In this document: piece after piece, positions 453 to 21,672 of the stretch
Layout of the letters: every line of letters begins with the position of its first letter
Numbering within the stretch: position 1 is the stretch's first letter
DNA from: a virus
Strand: one strand, 5' to 3'
Virus genome (UHGV): UHGV-0119633
Length of the DNA: 28,006 nt
The notes under the pieces: generated by a model
What the model saw: only the letters and a program-made list of their open reading frames with translations
What the model was told of the DNA's origin: nothing
Database searches by the model: none
Translations under genes and position numbers: made by a program

Positions 453-836
453 TTAAACTTCTTCGTTTACTCCGATAGATACTACTCCTCCGATCAACTG
501 ATCTGGCTTCCAATCGTAAGCATCACATAATTCTTTTCCAAAGTTACCGAGTTCTGATAATGGAACTCCGTCTGTCCAAATATCAAACCATTTATCTGGA
601 TTGTGACTCGATACTTCTGTTACCCCTTTCTGTAATAAAGTTTCTGGTACTTCCAGTTTCTTTAGTTTTGGATCAGGAATACTCGGAAGTTTATCCCAGT
701 CAAAATCCTCAAATTTAGGTTTCTTTTTGGTTACAACGAATATAACTCCACCAGCTATCACTAGCCCGGTTCCAATAAGAATTTCCTTCTTGTGTTCCTT
801 TACAAATATTTTTGCTTTCTCAAGTTTTTCTTTCAT
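453..836 (-). CDS. membrane-anchored protein (N-terminal TM helix), paralog family KEK..KAK..KEHK
   Basis: ORF track 127 aa; RBS AAAGGAGAA 7 nt upstream of ATG; hydrophobic segment ILIGTGLVIAGGVIFVV; N-terminus similar to ORF 15181-15537. Confidence 0.6.
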   Translation of the reverse strand: MKEKLEKAKIFVKEHKKEILIGTGLVIAGGVIFVVTKKKPKFEDFDWDKLPSIPDPKLKKLEVPETLLQKGVTEVSSHNPDKWFDIWTDGVPLSELGNFGKELCDAYDWKPDQLIGGVVSIGVNEEV

Positions 837-2116: not shown

Positions 2117-2401
2117 TTACACATAATCGTCCTCATCTATGTCGTCTTCATACTCAAATTCATCATTATAATCGTCACTACCAGATCCATATAACTCTTT
2201 TAAAGCTTCTTGACGTTTGTTAATACTATCGATAGATGCTTTATATGTACTGATTCTGATAAACTCCGACATAGACATTCCGCTAAGTCTAGCTGCCCTC
2301 TCTATAGACGAATACTCCTCGTCATTGCATTTAGAGAAAATAGGTTTTCTTCTCGCTCCAAACTTCAACGGCCTCCCACGTTTCTTTTTAACTTCTTCCA
2401 T
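2117..2401 (-). CDS. small basic/AT-hook (KKRGRP) protein with RHH-like core and acidic tail
   Basis: ORF track 94 aa; RBS GAGGAGGA; motif GMSMSEFIRIS resembles ribbon-helix-helix family; paralogous to 3643-3813 and 6290-6493. Confidence 0.55.
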   Translation of the reverse strand: MEEVKKKRGRPLKFGARRKPIFSKCNDEEYSSIERAARLSGMSMSEFIRISTYKASIDSINKRQEALKELYGSGSDDYNDEFEYEDDIDEDDYV

Positions 2402-3360: not shown

Positions 3361-3621
3361 TTATCTCACATCAACGTTGCATCCAAAATTAATCAGATAA
3401 TCGGTAGTACAACCCAACACATGAGACATTCTAGCGATAACATCTATTCTAGGGGTACGTTTACATCTCATATAATTAGACATAGCCGACTCAGATATAC
3501 CGATTAATTTAGCCAATTCTTTTTGATTAATGCCGCATAAGTCCATACGGTAATTAAGCTTTTCAACGAAGCGTTTTCGCCATTCAATTTCACTAATAGA
3601 TTTTATAGGAGTCATTTCCAT
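3361..3621 (-). CDS. XRE-family helix-turn-helix DNA-binding protein
   Basis: INQKELAKLIGISESAMSNYMRCKRTPRIDVIARMSHVLGCTTDYL = Cro/C1-type HTH; RBS AAGGAGGA. Confidence 0.7.
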   Translation of the reverse strand: MEMTPIKSISEIEWRKRFVEKLNYRMDLCGINQKELAKLIGISESAMSNYMRCKRTPRIDVIARMSHVLGCTTDYLINFGCNVDVR

Positions 3622-3642: not shown

Positions 3643-3813
3643 TTACTTCTCTTCTTGGTACATTCTCTCTAAAGCAGTTCTAAATACATCAGCAGCACTC
3701 ATACCTGTTGACTTACGAACCTTCTCTAAAATATCTAATTCTTTCCTATTAACACGAACTAGATATCTTGTATCTCTAGGATCTGCTATCGGTTTTCTAC
3801 CTCTCTTCGCCAT
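3643..3813 (-). CDS. small basic/AT-hook RHH-like protein (56 aa, MAKRGRKPIADPRDTRYLVRVNRKELDILEKVRKSTGMSAADVFRTALERMYQEEK)
   Basis: Hand-translated; below ORF-track size cutoff; RBS AAGGGAGG 8 nt upstream; clear paralog of 6290-6493 (RGRP..DPR..Y..R.N..E...LE...K.TGM..ADVFR.ALE..Y). Confidence 0.55.
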   Translation of the reverse strand: MAKRGRKPIADPRDTRYLVRVNRKELDILEKVRKSTGMSAADVFRTALERMYQEEK

Positions 3814-3910
3814 ACATATCGCCTCCCTTCTATGACAGATACCATTAATACGAAAAACAAAAGAAGAGCCTCAACTAAATATCAATCTAGTCAAAGCTCT
3901 CCCACATCAA

Positions 3911-3982
3911 TTAATCTTTAAGATAACCAACTTTATATAAGAATCTTCCTACAACTGCCCAAAACTTCTGTCTGAGTGTCAT
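3911..3982 (-). CDS. possible 23-aa peptide (MTLRQKFWAVVGRFLYKVGYLKD)
   Basis: Strong RBS AAAGGAGGGA 6 nt upstream of ATG, ~30 nt downstream of promoter-like motif D; very short. Confidence 0.2.
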   Translation of the reverse strand: MTLRQKFWAVVGRFLYKVGYLKD

Positions 3983-4007
3983 ATAGATCCCTCCTTTCTA
4001 TTTGGTT

Positions 4008-4040
4008 TCTTTTCATAATAGGCGTTGTTAATATCACGAA
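4008..4040 (-). promoter_or_regulatory. conserved intergenic motif, copy D
   Basis: Minus-strand TTCGTGATATTAACAACGCCTATTATGAAAAG. Confidence 0.3.
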
Positions 4041-4063
4041 AGAAAAAGAGAGAAGAAGTATAT

Positions 4064-4205
4064 CTCAGCTACACGTTTCTCTGCATCCATTTAAAGACAC
4101 ATTCACTGGTCAGTTCCAGTCCCACTAATATACTTTGATGCTACACGTTTCTCCATACATAAGTATGTTCACTGGTCAGTTCCAGTCCCACATCAACTTT
4201 TATTC
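4064..4205. repeat. tandem ~70-bp direct repeat (2 copies) with internal hairpin
   Basis: Both copies share CTACACGTTTCTC and TTCACTGGTCAGTTCCAGTCCCAC (ACTGG/CCAGT stem); located between promoter-like motifs E and D. Confidence 0.55.
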
Positions 4206-4238
4206 TTCTCTCATAATATAAAATGTATTTTTCGCGAA
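4206..4238 (-). promoter_or_regulatory. conserved intergenic motif, copy E
   Basis: Minus-strand TTCGCGAAAAATACATTTTATATTATGAGAGA; directly after terminator 4237-4264. Confidence 0.35.
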
Positions 4239-4264
4239 TAAAAAGAAGAGGCTGTAAAAGCCCC
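4237..4264 (-). terminator. rho-independent terminator (short stem)
   Basis: GGGGC-UUUUACA-GCCUC then UUCUUUUUAUU on minus RNA; after stop of 4274-4657. Confidence 0.4.
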
Positions 4265-4273
4265 TTACTTGTT

Positions 4274-4657
4274 TTACTTAATTTTAATTGAGTCGTATTC
4301 CTCCTTAAATTTATTAAGCTTTTCCGTAAGTTCTTTTAACTCCTCTTCATATCTTTGTTTTACTATTAATGACACTTCGGAATTGTGTTTGTCACATCCT
4401 TCGATTTTAGAGACTCGATAAGCTATCTTTCTGTTCAGTGTTCCTATAGCTTCTTCAAGAGCACCTTCTTTTACCACATCTCTCACGAACTCTATAGTTT
4501 CAGTGTTATTCTTTATCTGTATATGATTCTTACATATAAAGAACGTTACCAATCCTATAGAAACACATGAGACACCGGCAATTATTTTGCCATTGTTGTC
4601 CATAACCACTTCTTTGAAAGACCTCTTTCCTTTCTCTTTAACATCGTGCTTCTTCAT
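4274..4657 (-). CDS. membrane-anchored coiled-coil protein (127 aa)
   Basis: ORF track; RBS AAGGAGG; hydrophobic segment IIAGVSCVSIGLVTFFI; followed by terminator. Confidence 0.6.
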   Translation of the reverse strand: MKKHDVKEKGKRSFKEVVMDNNGKIIAGVSCVSIGLVTFFICKNHIQIKNNTETIEFVRDVVKEGALEEAIGTLNRKIAYRVSKIEGCDKHNSEVSLIVKQRYEEELKELTEKLNKFKEEYDSIKIK

Positions 4658-6105: not shown

Positions 6106-6306
6106 TCATTCCTCCTTACTTCTTCTAACTTCCATTTCTAACCCAGATTGTATCCAACATCTTCTACATTTACTCTCATCATAGCCAGTAACACCACAGT
6201 TACAGCGCTCAGATGATTGTAAATCATAATCGTATGGACAATTAAACTCGACTAATAAATCGAGCATCGTTTCTTTCTGATTTTCATTATCAAATATCAT
6301 TTTCAT
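6106..6306 (-). CDS. small Cys-rich protein (66 aa)
   Basis: ORF track; RBS GAGGTG; CPYDYD...CNCG...CRRC cysteine pattern. Confidence 0.5.
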   Translation of the reverse strand: MKMIFDNENQKETMLDLLVEFNCPYDYDLQSSERCNCGVTGYDESKCRRCWIQSGLEMEVRRSKEE

Positions 6307-6493
6307 CGTTTAACACACCTCGCTCCGATTCCTTCTCATATAACTTCTCCAAAGCCACTCTAAAAACATCGGCCTGTCCCATACCAGTCATCTTGCAGCA
6401 ATCCTCTAGCATTTTATTTTCTTTATCATTTATACGTATCATGTAATGTTTCTTCCTCGGGTCTTTACTATAAGGTCTCCCTCGTCTGCCCAT
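6290..6493 (-). CDS. small basic/AT-hook RHH-like protein (paralog of 3643-3813)
   Basis: ORF track 67 aa; RBS GGAGGTGA 6 nt upstream; MGRRGRPYSKDPRKKHYMIRIN...TGMGQADVFRVALEKLY. Confidence 0.55.
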   Translation of the reverse strand: MGRRGRPYSKDPRKKHYMIRINDKENKMLEDCCKMTGMGQADVFRVALEKLYEKESERGVLNDENDI

Positions 6494-11338: not shown

Positions 11339-11407
11339 GTAATTCCTCCTTTCTTTAGTTTACTTATACAAAAAGAAAAAGAGCCCCACAATTGAGACTT
11401 TAATTCT

Positions 11408-11533
11408 CTAAAATATAAGTTCCAAAATTACATTGATGATGCTCACACTGGTCCAAGCAATTGCTCCACCCGCATATAATGCTAATGCAAGTTTTCCTGC
11501 CTCAACCAAGTCTTTCTTAATATTTCTCAACAT
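11408..11533 (-). CDS. hydrophobic peptide (41 aa, MLRNIKKDLVEAGKLALALYAGGAIAWTSVSIINVILELIF)
   Basis: Hand-translated; RBS GGAGGATAAAAGT-ATG; promoter-like motif G 20 nt upstream. Confidence 0.4.
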   Translation of the reverse strand: MLRNIKKDLVEAGKLALALYAGGAIAWTSVSIINVILELIF

Positions 11534-15180: not shown

Positions 15181-15537
15181 TTAAATCTTGTTTTTCTCTA
15201 AATAGAGTTCTTCAAGTTGTATAGTTAGTTCTTCTATCCGTGCTTGCCTTTCTGGAATTCTACTAAATTTATTAATGTTTATAGTATCATCCAATCTGCT
15301 TATAGATTCCTTTAACTCGTCAATTTCAAATATCACGCGCTTTATCTCTCTGTCGATACTTCTTTTTGCTACCGATGTAACCTTTCCTAGTCTAATGTCG
15401 ATACTGTTCAGAATCTTAGTCTTATGATTCAACTTGCATCCCATTATAACTAATCCAGTTCCGGCGACAGCTAATGATATCTCGATTTTATGCTCCTTGA
15501 TATAGTCTTTAGCTTTGTTAAATTTTTCTTTCAGCAT
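15181..15537 (-). CDS. membrane-anchored coiled-coil protein, paralog of 453-836 N-terminus
   Basis: ORF track 118 aa; RBS AAAGGAGG; MLKEKFNKAKDYIKEHKIEIS...GLVI parallels MKEKLEKAKIFVKEHKKEILIGTGLVI. Confidence 0.6.
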   Translation of the reverse strand: MLKEKFNKAKDYIKEHKIEISLAVAGTGLVIMGCKLNHKTKILNSIDIRLGKVTSVAKRSIDREIKRVIFEIDELKESISRLDDTININKFSRIPERQARIEELTIQLEELYLEKNKI

Positions 15538-18076: not shown

Positions 18077-18238
18077 CTATTCTTCAGTTTTGTTCTTCAC
18101 GTTATGTCTCGTTTTCGTCACAGATCTCACTGTCTTGCAAACGTATCGTCCGATGCTCTCAACCACTACTCCCATTGCGAACATACCCCACACTGGAATA
18201 TCAATTGTTTTGTCACCTTTCTTAATATGCATGTTCAT
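18077..18238 (-). CDS. hypothetical small protein (53 aa, MNMHIKKGDKTIDIPVWGMFAMGVVVESIG...)
   Basis: Hand-translated; RBS GAAAGGAGAAA 6 nt upstream. Confidence 0.4.
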   Translation of the reverse strand: MNMHIKKGDKTIDIPVWGMFAMGVVVESIGRYVCKTVRSVTKTRHNVKNKTEE

Positions 18239-20103: not shown

Positions 20104-21672
20104 CTATTTAGCCAAGCCCCTTTCGTTTAGTGCATCCTCAACTGCGGAATATCGATCTGAGTTAAGTTGCTCTAATAAGCACTCTAGCGGATCGGTGTTA
20201 TTACTAAGCACCATATTGGTAATAATCGGACTAAATCCACTTACTAAAGCAACTCCTAGATCGTTCTCTTTTACTGGGATGGTTCCTGTTCTGCTACAAA
20301 TGTTCCAGAATATCAATCTAGGAAGTTTATAGCCGTACTGAGAGTAACGATCTGATATCGTATTAAACAGTGTTTTACTCGGTCTGATATTGCTCCATCT
20401 TGAACCTCCTTCGCAACTAGCACAGCTATCAAATTCCATATCTGATAAGATAAGTATGTTTTTAGGAATGTCGTTCTGTGACATGTTATTGTTGATTGCT
20501 GTTTTGAGAATAAGTTCAAATACAGCTTCGATGTTTGTGTTAGCCACCTCGTTGTATCTCCTGGCAATTTCGATCTTTTCTCTCAAAGATTCTCCGTTAC
20601 TAAGATCTACTAAACGAGGATTCATGCTGAATGTAATATATTTGTCTCTGAATTCACCAGAACTTCTTTCAGAAAAATATATTGCAAGAGCATTGGCTAC
20701 CTCTAAAGCTGTTACACTTGTTCCGCCGACAGGACAGTCCATACTACCCGATCCGTCCGCAACGCAAATTGTGTTACCGTCTCCGTTTACATAATCGGGA
20801 AGTGCTTTCCACAATTCTTCAAGTGTAATGTCATCTTTACCTTTGAGTTTATTCCCGTACCAAAATTCACCCCGATCAAAGTATTTATGTACAATATCAT
20901 GCGGGAATAGTACACCAGCATTGATTTTCGTCTCGCCTTTCTGCAAACTCGCTAAGTAACTACTTCTCCTTTCCTCATCGTTCTTCATAAACGCATTACC
21001 ATATATAATATTGGCTCTTGATGGAACCGCAGAATAATCAATCTTTGACCATTCTTTCTTACACATACTAACTTCCACAACTTTTAAATATGCACGAAGA
21101 TCCGAAAGCATTTTACGATAGGATTTCTCGTTAATAAATAACTTCTGAATCATAAGACGTGCTAGTCGTTTTGTCTCTTTAGACGAAGTGTTTGCAGACG
21201 GCATCCATTTAGCTAATAAAGAAATAGGCTCTCCTAGAGATCTCTTCCTTATATCACTTGTCAACTGTGTAGATACAATTGATACAACGTAGTCTGAAAC
21301 GTCAGTGTCTAATAAACACCATAAATCATCCCATCTACCGTATTCCGGAACCAACGGAATGATTGCCTTTGATATATCGGCATGTTTTTCGGATAGATAC
21401 TTAAGACAATATCTGAATAATCTTCTTTCTCCGAGACCTTCTCGTACATCTCTGGCATAGAACAACCACTTGATAGCAAGCTGTTTGTTTTCGTAGAATG
21501 TCTTTACAAACTTGTCTACGATTTCTCCCTCGTCCATATTTCGCATGGATGTTACTGAAAAGTTGATGTCAAGAAGTTCTTTACCAGTAGTACGGTAACC
21601 AACTGCTCCATTTTCAGTAAGGCTTGTGTTGAATTCATCATTGATTGTTTCTTTCAGATTGTTCATAAACAT
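20104..21672 (-). CDS. vWA-domain protein with MIDAS motif and TROVE/Ro60-like N-terminal region (DUF2828-like)
   Basis: 522 aa; DGSGSM (DxSxS MIDAS) followed by vWA-like layout; N-terminal GYRTTGKELLD and LAIKWLFYARDVREGLGERR resemble TROVE module; RBS AAAGGAGAAAAACT. Confidence 0.6.
   Translation of the reverse strand: MFMNNLKETINDEFNTSLTENGAVGYRTTGKELLDINFSVTSMRNMDEGEIVDKFVKTFYENKQLAIKWLFYARDVREGLGERRLFRYCLKYLSEKHADISKAIIPLVPEYGRWDDLWCLLDTDVSDYVVSIVSTQLTSDIRKRSLGEPISLLAKWMPSANTSSKETKRLARLMIQKLFINEKSYRKMLSDLRAYLKVVEVSMCKKEWSKIDYSAVPSRANIIYGNAFMKNDEERRSSYLASLQKGETKINAGVLFPHDIVHKYFDRGEFWYGNKLKGKDDITLEELWKALPDYVNGDGNTICVADGSGSMDCPVGGTSVTALEVANALAIYFSERSSGEFRDKYITFSMNPRLVDLSNGESLREKIEIARRYNEVANTNIEAVFELILKTAINNNMSQNDIPKNILILSDMEFDSCASCEGGSRWSNIRPSKTLFNTISDRYSQYGYKLPRLIFWNICSRTGTIPVKENDLGVALVSGFSPIITNMVLSNNTDPLECLLEQLNSDRYSAVEDALNERGLAK

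Follow-up and report, generated by a model that had tools for sequence, protein, structure and literature searches.

Tandem repeats between two promoter-like motifs of a gut-phage genome encode a conserved, modular, structured RNA

What is encoded by a pair of tandem ~70-bp repeats that lies between two promoter-like motifs, in a gap between phage genes? We addressed this question in the virus genome UHGV-0119633, a stretch of 28,006 nt that is called the window here. It belongs to the 96.7-kb viral contig IMGVR_UViG_3300045988_045688 and is identical in sequence to the locus of that contig labelled L004. All coordinates are positions in the window. A sequence-only reading had offered three answers, namely a repeat-containing small RNA, a decoy or binding array, and a leader peptide with an attenuator. 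Since every gene of the window is on the minus strand, the whole locus was read on that (coding) strand, on which a promoter motif, the repeats, a second promoter motif and a 23-codon open reading frame (ORF) follow each other. Our results showed that the interval encodes a conserved, modular, structured RNA on the coding strand.

The repeats fold into three-way junctions

The interval 3814-4273 had been described as non-coding, and its coding strand has no ORF that reaches 40 aa. The two repeats (4064-4133 and 4136-4205) are genuine, with 57 of 77 columns matching on alignment. A 24-nt block, TTCACTGGTCAGTTCCAGTCCCAC, is exact at 4102-4125 and 4168-4191, and a 14-nt block, GCTACACGTTTCTC, at 4068-4081 and 4140-4153. 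Neither block has further copies in the window, and shuffles expect 0 to 0.07 copies. Tandem Repeats Finder was silent on the two repeats because they are imperfect, with a period of 66-72 nt.

Each repeat corresponds to one RNA module, a three-way junction of 65-75 nt. Its plan is P1, UGGG, P2 topped by GGAACUGACC, a variable P3 hairpin, GAGAAACGUGUAG and the returning strand of P1. In the window, P2 is ACUGG and CCAGU around the loop AACUGA. The hairpin-forming block of the sequence-only reading is real and corresponds to this P2, which is accompanied by two further helices in each module. The parts of the RNA unit are as follows; the E-values of the covariance model (CM) are rough, as its calibration was shortened.

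4210..4238, minus strand: putative promoter of the RNA, TTCGCG-N17-TATGAG, with the core AAATACA-N7-TATTAT running into GAGA; a lineage-wide phage motif
4203..4212, minus strand: 5' arm of the closing stem P0, GAGAGAAGAA, directly after TATTAT and probably the 5' end of the RNA; seen as a 10-nt perfect inverted repeat, in the fold and in arms that co-vary across lineages
4135..4196, minus strand: module 1; CM match of 89.3 bits (E 1e-24), pair counts, and P1, P2 and P3 given by RNAalifold
4196-4191/4140-4135 (P1), 4186-4182/4175-4171 (P2) and 4167-4154 (P3), minus strand: helices of module 1, from CM and pair counts
4190-4187 (J1/2, UGGG), 4181-4176 (loop, AACUGA), 4170-4168 (J2/3, GAA) and 4153-4141 (J3/1, GAGAAACGUGUAG), minus strand: unpaired parts of module 1
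4058..4133, minus strand: module 2; CM match of 48.5 bits (E 1e-11) and pair counts
4133-4125/4068-4058 (P1, with an AG bulge at 4065-4064), 4120-4116/4109-4105 (P2) and 4101-4082 (P3), minus strand: helices of module 2
4124-4121 (J1/2), 4115-4110 (loop), 4104-4102 (J2/3) and 4081-4069 (J3/1), minus strand: unpaired parts of module 2
4039..4057, minus strand: 3' arm of P0, TTCTTCTCTC (4057-4048), and T-run (4047-4039), a predicted terminator; seen as inverted repeat, in the fold and in co-varying arms

The fold was tested by comparison with relatives. In 12 full-length elements, 95.6% of 298 pair cells were paired. The control values were 83% for shuffled sequences and 30-44% for slid registers, and 0 of 500 shuffles attained the observed pairing score. 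More than half of the pairs (13 of 25) change on both sides. In 24 modules, P2 was paired in 100% of cells and covaried at 3 of its 5 pairs, with the variants ACUGG/CCAGU, UACGG/CCGUA, CCUGG/CCAGG, UGCGG/CCGUA and CUUGG/CCAAG. P1, P2 and P3 were also recovered independently by RNAalifold. At least nine unrelated sequences occupy P3, which is nevertheless a hairpin at the same position in every module. The two copies in the relative L001 differ by compensatory changes.

The strand was equally clear. The alignment holds 36 G·U cells, and pairing was 95.6% on the minus-strand transcript versus 83.9% on its complement. When the closest relative is compared with the window, the only differences in P3 of module 2 are C-G to U·G and A-U to G·U changes, which preserve the pairing.

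GGAACUGACC at the top of P2 is invariant, the junction strands (U/C)GG(G/A/U) and G(A/G)AA(C/U/G)GUNYAG are nearly so, and J2/3 is not conserved. Phages with helicases only ~58% and TMCC proteins (products of the gene beside the RNA, see below) only ~35% identical still show 100% conservation of loop and junction.

Two tertiary contacts were considered, both speculative. For a pseudoknot between the P2 loop and J3/1 (CUG with YAG), the variation is compatible in most sequences but not compensatory. For kissing of the two J3/1 strands via ACGU, the variation is again not compensatory, and the variant AAGGUG in the elements L012b and L009b breaks ACGU. As for base-pairing targets in trans, no complement of the junction strand was found in the window at up to 2 mismatches. 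A likeness of ACUGGAACUGA to 16S rRNA was dropped: only GGAACUGACC is conserved in the family, and the 16S stretch pairs differently.

The RNA has its own promoter motif and closing stem

Both promoter-like motifs flanking the repeats were confirmed on the minus strand, as TTCGCG-N17-TATGAG at 4238-4210 and TTCGTG-N17-TATGAA at 4040-4012. The strict pattern has 4 copies in the window versus 0.14 expected. Its relaxed form, CG(C/T)G-N15-19-T(A/T)ATGA, has 7 copies on the minus strand (at ~21916, 18311, 16169, 15146, 4715, 4236 and 4038) and 0 on the plus strand. The motif is abundant in all relatives and is also found in the early region of Faecalibacterium phage FP_oengus (L198, L032). It often lies directly behind the T-run of a terminator, and several copies run straight into a Shine-Dalgarno (SD) sequence and start codon (...TTTTATGAGGAGAGAAAAGATG). 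Transcription would therefore start at about the G after TAT, so that the RNA would begin with the 5' arm; here the predicted start is ~4212, at the G after TATTAT.

The first 10 nt, GAGAGAAGAA, are perfectly complementary to UUCUUCUCUC, the last 10 nt before the U-run. In the DNA, the 3' arm TTCTTCTCTC (4057-4048) runs into TTTTTCTTT. This closing stem is found in nearly every element, and its arms change jointly (GAGAGAAGAA/UUCUUCUCUC, GAGAAAAGA/UCUUUUCUC, AAGAGAGUAU/AUACUCUCUU, UGAGAAGA/UCUUCUCA). It comprises 10 bp around ~145 nt, is purine/pyrimidine-rich rather than GC-rich, and is followed by a U-run; the terminator scan made no call on it. The transcript would end at this stem and U-run, because the U-run is present and because ordinary gene terminators fill the same position before the next promoter. 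The small-RNA gene would thus span 4212-4039 on the minus strand, ~170 nt with the 5' arm, two modules, the 3' arm and the U-run. Promoter motif, closing stem and U-run are conserved in the family and no ORF is, although some relatives have no U-run or no following promoter.

Taken together, the covariation, the strand-specific G·U pairs, the RNA's own promoter motif and its own closing stem with U-run strongly support the proposal of a repeat-containing small RNA.

A candidate polymerase for the promoter motif was found in the same phages. FP_oengus gp55, annotated as an RNA-dependent RNA polymerase (RdRP), is a member of PHROG_4291 with a weak Pfam RdRP match and, at its C-terminus, a helix-turn-helix (HTH) like sigma70 region 4. 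The polymerase search of viral contigs was filled by close relatives of FP_oengus, so the homologue data come from local tblastn. In at least 10 RNA-bearing lineages including L116, a homologue of gp55 (42-50% identity) is encoded a few kb away from the RNA. Every RNA-bearing lineage with enough flanking DNA encodes a PHROG_4291 protein of ~920-1015 aa (L116:6469-9513, L009:7585-10347, L001:5962-8757, L019:11488-14211 and others), and the window's own gene would lie beyond its left edge. For YonO, a related or analogous polymerase, the promoter is still undetermined (PMC5467207). By analogy with YonO, the motif may be the promoter of the gp55-type polymerase.

The RNA family is uncatalogued and found in gut phages

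A repeat not conserved in relatives had been named as one part of what would speak against the first reading. We found the module in ~20 distinct elements from ~40 contigs of gut phages related to FP_oengus. Exact and gapped pattern scans located it in 19 metagenome contigs and, among viral contigs, in 11 to 16. True matches were confirmed at 40-89 bits by the module's covariance model, which also found extra loci in the same phages. Seven candidates (L016, L023, L026, L031, L112, L113 and L115) were discarded as GC-rich coding sequence with a CM score of ~20 bits or no match. The closer relatives L034, L040, L108 and L116 were obtained by retrieving the DNA that flanks TMCC homologues. The modules of an element have usually been homogenised, and single-module and 2+2 variants are also found.

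In 185,579 representative bacterial and archaeal genomes, the composite pattern was absent except for one spurious coding match. Near and distant blastn against annotated-phage DNA gave no match for the window and only chance matches for the L010 element. The nearest cultured relative by helicase similarity (56% amino-acid identity) is FP_oengus, which has the promoter type and the polymerase, but the module is nowhere in its 58 kb.

Known RNA families did not account for the element. Rfam 15 gave no match in the window at the gathering threshold. At E up to 10, the interval 3800-4300 gave noise only, all below half of the gathering score. Across 12 relatives only two tRNAs were found, elsewhere in those contigs, and the L108 array gave none; ARAGORN, run on the window and 7 relatives, detected no tRNA- or tmRNA-like gene. 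With no Rfam 15 match, the family is uncatalogued, and its sequence places it among phage-encoded structured small RNAs as a putative new class. Literature searches with the conserved strings, and for tandem or three-way-junction phage RNAs, found no description of the motif; the strings matched unrelated primers only. Fremin et al. 2023 list 8,495 unnamed RNA candidates from IMG/VR (PMC10690425), and the motif could be among them.

RNA units appear as cassettes between repeated promoters

The unit in the window stands in the following surroundings.

4274..4657, minus strand: TMCC gene for a 127-aa membrane and coiled-coil protein, from the ORF listing; own promoter at ~4715
4239..4266, minus strand: intrinsic terminator of the TMCC gene, AAGGGGCTTTTACAGCCTCTT and a T-run merging into the next promoter, from the terminator scan; the terminator-then-promoter junction is also found in relatives
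4012..4040, minus strand: second promoter motif, TTCGTG-N17-TATGAA; by alignment a hybrid of promoters 3 and 4 of L108
3911..3997, minus strand: SD AAAGGAGGG (3997-3989) and 23-codon ORF (3982-3911), from the ORF listing; conserved in L116 and L108 only
3852..3903, minus strand: intrinsic terminator behind the small ORF, from the terminator scan; compensatory stem differences in L116
3813..3643, minus strand: ribbon-helix-helix (RHH) gene after the small-ORF terminator; no recognisable promoter of the phage-motif type ahead
3621..3361, minus strand: XRE-HTH gene just downstream of the RHH gene

The relative L108, whose TMCC protein is 95% identical, has a longer array. There, promoter 1 is followed by a two-module RNA 98% identical to that of the window, promoter 2 by a different RNA of ~110 nt, promoter 3 by a second two-module RNA, and promoter 4 by the 23-codon ORF. 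The three RNAs are each closed by their own stem and T-run, with no gene between the units. Two two-module elements also stand in tandem in L040. The second promoter of the window (4012-4040) is chimeric: in comparison with L108:2255-2300 and L108:2440-2512, its 5' half matches promoter 3 and its 3' half promoter 4. This hybrid marks the window as a deletion derivative that arose by recombination between promoters. RNA cassettes thus appear to be gained and lost by recombination between repeated promoters.

Other module families sit on the same scaffold in L005, L007/L009, L012 and L021, and none of them is in Rfam. At least three other structured-RNA module types share the promoter and closing stem, some of them tandem-duplicated. 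Type B contains GGAGGTWGATTCGG, type C GCCAGTATTGACCTGG...CATGAAACGTGGGGAC and type D GGTGWGGTTG...TGTAATTACGAYGAT. Loci of the other modules are given below.

L108:2100-2260, L116:1-80 and L012:~11380-11500
L009:~6250-6430
L005:~5100-4990 and L021:~1110-1200

Two further units of the window have a similar layout. At 15148-14945 (minus strand), ~170 ORF-free nt that fold well (z = -3.5) stand between a promoter motif and a strong terminator; this second sRNA-like unit is directly downstream of the TMCC paralogue 15537..15181 and has no Rfam match. At 18313-18030 (minus strand), a promoter motif, a 53-aa ORF (18237..18078) and a terminator precede the next gene, a third case of the order promoter, short unit, terminator, operon.

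The DNA that follows the 3' arm was compared over ~19 distinct loci. Another promoter comes next in 11 of them. The genes directly following the RNA are mutually unrelated, coding for a dNMP kinase, a 95-aa protein with no assigned function, an HNH endonuclease or TMCC. A TMCC paralogue adjoins the RNA in every lineage examined, on either side, and tblastn matches lie beside the RNA at 20 loci. The window itself has three TMCC paralogues on the minus strand (4657..4274, 15537..15181 and 836..453). In TMCC proteins, a basic N-terminus precedes one transmembrane helix and a coiled-coil tail, and no Pfam, PHROG or PADLOC family was found for them.

A proposed trans-acting RNA and a possible cis-acting leader

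What would such an RNA do? In the mechanism that we favour, the RNA would be made from a strong phage promoter as a stand-alone, end-protected transcript and would act in trans. Each module would be an aptamer-like site, whose invariant loop and junction nucleotides would contact one conserved partner, either a host or phage protein or a small ligand. The two copies on one scaffold would allow bivalent, high-avidity binding, so that the RNA could serve as decoy, sponge or scaffold. The earlier proposal of a decoy or binding array is compatible with the data in this form, as the putative mechanism that we prefer. A stand-alone, trans-acting RNA is favoured because the RNA units can be consecutive without genes, because a following promoter insulates most of them, because the downstream genes are incoherent and because the terminal stem seals the ends. 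Two equivalent binding sites are suggested because loop and junction are invariant, P3 varies freely and there are usually two homogenised modules. We rate the chance that the RNA is a stand-alone, trans-acting sRNA with two equivalent binding sites and a decoy, sponge or scaffold role as about even.

The most serious competitor is a cis-acting leader. The two modules would then be tandem riboswitch-like aptamers, or an element of put/EAR-type processive antitermination, and would decide between a stop at the U-run and reading into the next gene, mostly TMCC. Tandem aptamers before a terminator are a known design, that of the glycine riboswitch, and count for a leader. RNAalifold also proposed that the second junction strand could pair instead with the region of the 3' arm. 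But this pairing shows no covariation, and both alternatives put a helix beside the U-run, which leaves no evident on/off logic. Moreover, a fresh promoter lies right behind the U-run at most loci, the L108 units are consecutive without genes, and the downstream genes are functionally incoherent. We therefore regard the leader as possible but doubtful.

Several observations nevertheless weigh against a stand-alone, trans-acting RNA. At 5 of 19 loci, the U-run is followed by an SD and gene without a new promoter; the 61-kb phages, L034, L012 and the second L040 element are among them. At 3 of 19 loci (L005a, L009b and L019) there is no U-run and the RNA runs straight into the TMCC gene. Both groups fit a leader, and in these lineages the RNA is at least also a 5' leader, although at the three U-run-less loci the 3' arm overlaps a promoter-like string, ATACA-N7-TTATGA, and the gene may have its own start. 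The constant adjacency of TMCC, which also speaks for a leader, hints at a cis or functional link that the trans-acting model does not explain. In addition, the start and end of the RNA are positions predicted from the conserved motifs, and the conserved binding partner is hypothetical. The window has a single protein of RNA-binding type (DUF2828, PHROG_850), and other contigs with the RNA were not found to encode it. Finally, a variable stem framed by invariant junction nucleotides is just as typical of a riboswitch aptamer or a ribozyme.

Less likely readings: ribozyme, operator and attenuator

A further reading is that the module is a new class of self-cleaving or processed ribozyme, and that the tandem pair frees unit-length RNAs. 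Ribozymes of the hammerhead type share the design of a three-way junction whose junction strands are invariant and whose variable stem is dispensable, and different structured module types stand side by side at these loci. Work by Weinberg et al. in 2015 is said to have found self-cleaving ribozymes of several classes clustered in phage-like DNA, often in tandem. However, the models of hammerhead, twister, pistol, hatchet, hairpin and HDV ribozymes gave no match here even at E up to 10, and there is no known ribozyme in the vicinity. The hammerhead core consists of CUGANGA ... GAAA ... UH around a three-way junction, and its CUGANGA is missing from the junction strands UGGG, GAA and GAGAAACGUGUAG of the module. 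Each unit also has its own promoter and terminator, so processing is unnecessary for its release. A ribozyme is unlikely. A likeness to the hairpin ribozyme (AGAAAC ... GUAUAUUA) was rejected: GUAUAUUAG varies to GUAUGUCGU and GCAUUAUAAG with a compensating partner and is the P1 strand in module 2, not a conserved loop, and the Rfam hairpin model did not match.

It is highly improbable that the repeats act as DNA, as operators or iterons for a DNA-binding protein such as the downstream RHH or HTH protein. They are direct repeats between two promoters, with RHH and XRE-HTH genes following, and invariant blocks alone cannot separate DNA from RNA recognition. Against this, the stems change by compensatory substitutions and their sequence is not kept, and the 36 G·U cells are A·C mismatches on the other strand. 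P3 retains hairpin potential only, the orientation to the promoter is fixed at all loci, and most relatives have no RHH or HTH gene next to the RNA.

The SD-preceded 23-codon ORF (3982..3911, minus strand; SD AAAGGAGGG) is present as described and encodes MTLRQKFWAVVGRFLYKVGYLKD. The peptide is identical in L116 (L116:330-401), with one synonymous change and a TGA in place of the TAA stop, and its L108 homologue (L108:2507-2578) carries R4K and A9T. Neither L034 nor any of the more distant RNA-bearing relatives has the ORF. By its layout the ORF is a separate predicted unit with its own promoter and terminator, outside the RNA, and it may be a real micro-protein gene of the sub-lineage. The leader-peptide attenuator, in which translation of this ORF would control the terminator and the repeats would lie in the leader, is scarcely credible. 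In its favour, the SD is strong, the terminator stem starts 8 nt behind the ORF, the peptide is kept in L116 and nearly so in L108, and no promoter of the phage-motif type is recognisable for the RHH operon that follows the terminator. Against it, the repeats precede the promoter of the ORF and would therefore be outside its transcript unless there is read-through, the ORF is limited to L108 and L116 while L034 and more distant relatives keep the RNA, and no alternative hairpin overlaps it.

Comparison with known RNA systems

Sponge sRNAs of the CsrB/RsmZ type are stand-alone, with their own promoter and terminator, as is predicted for the element, and like it they have repeated units with an invariant loop and a varying copy number. 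Their units are simple GGA hairpins, whereas those here are three-way junctions of 65-75 nt, only one or two per RNA. There is also no conserved motif of the CsrA type here, since GGA is partly buried in a stem and the junction strand is usually GAGAAAC.

The glycine riboswitch likewise has two tandem homologous three-way-junction domains with invariant junctions and covarying stems, followed by a helix beside a U-run. The element differs from it in having no sequence or Rfam match, incoherent downstream genes, a new promoter at most loci and no mutually exclusive platform that we could find. Tandem riboswitches lie in the 5' untranslated region of related genes; downstream of the element we found TMCC, dNMP kinase, HNH endonuclease, uncharacterised proteins and other RNA units.

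In Y RNA and YrlA, the 5' and 3' ends also pair in a terminal stem around modules, with a 3' U-run, and some phages carry Y RNA together with a Ro-like protein. Unlike them, the element has no Rfam Y_RNA or YrlA match and no tRNA-like module. The window does encode a 522-aa DUF2828/DUF7788 protein with a vWA-like domain (21672..20104, minus strand), assigned to PHROG_850 'RNA-binding protein'; the DUF2828 protein is widespread in other large phages. A Ro/Y-RNA partnership with it was rejected, as homologues were found in 67 viral contigs, among which the window's own source was the only RNA-bearing one.

Type III antitoxins (ToxI, CptI, TenpI) are promoter-driven tandem direct repeats with a terminator, and phages can carry mimics of them. 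Their units are 34-45 nt, near-identical, pseudoknotted and directly upstream of a ToxN-family endoribonuclease gene, whereas the element has 65-75-nt units with covarying stems and no toxin-like gene adjacent. Pfam and PADLOC searches for a defence or toxin partner among the neighbours gave generic HTH matches only, with no ToxN or AbiQ.

Like phi29 pRNA, ROOL and GOLLD, the element is phage-borne and highly structured with three-way junctions, and pRNA also has a helix of its 5' and 3' ends; ROOL and GOLLD are likewise without an assigned function. It differs from these in having no Rfam match, in its 60-97-kb siphovirus-like genomes and a locus distinct from that of phi29, and in its 170 nt, far below ROOL and GOLLD.

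A CRISPR mini-array or RNA anti-CRISPR would have identical repeats of 28-37 nt with unique spacers, or a lone copy of a host CRISPR repeat; the unit here is a three-way junction of 65-75 nt. As to CRISPR mimicry, the composite pattern had no genuine match in the 185,579 representative genomes, a result that bears on the pattern and not on similarity to host repeats alone.

In conclusion, the RNA is similar in part to sponge sRNAs, tandem riboswitches, Y RNAs and ToxI-type RNAs but does not qualify as any of them by their defining features: it lacks an Rfam match and a coherent regulon, no Ro-type protein co-occurs with it, and no toxin gene is adjacent.

Other features of the window

Three small, apparently related proteins on the minus strand, encoded at 3813..3643 (RHH), 6493..6290 and 2401..2117, share an AT-hook-like N-terminal (K/R)RGR(K)P; the latter two were compared with the first by eye. 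The 3813..3643 protein has weak MobC_2 and DUF6290 Pfam matches and a match to PHROG_876 'transcriptional repressor'. Tandem Repeats Finder reported an exact 21-nt tandem repeat, AATTATTAGCAGACCAAAAAT, of 1.9 copies at 2066-2105, inside a doubtful 55-aa ORF.

Implications

Structured phage RNAs with conservation of riboswitch or ribozyme grade are rare, and most of those found (ROOL, GOLLD and many orphans) have no known function. The compact module, its invariant nucleotides, its usual duplication and the shuffling of its cassette with at least three other RNA types make it well suited to experimental study. These loci also reveal a candidate promoter of an RdRP-fold phage polymerase that carries a sigma-region-4-like HTH. 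More tentatively, the module could be a new functional RNA class, a high-affinity aptamer for a host factor or signalling molecule or else a ribozyme, carried as one of several interchangeable cassettes in sRNA arrays that would be driven by promoters of the RdRP-fold polymerase and would form an RNA-based toolkit for host takeover or anti-defence. The carriers are relatives of Faecalibacterium phages, a widespread and poorly understood group of the human and animal gut.

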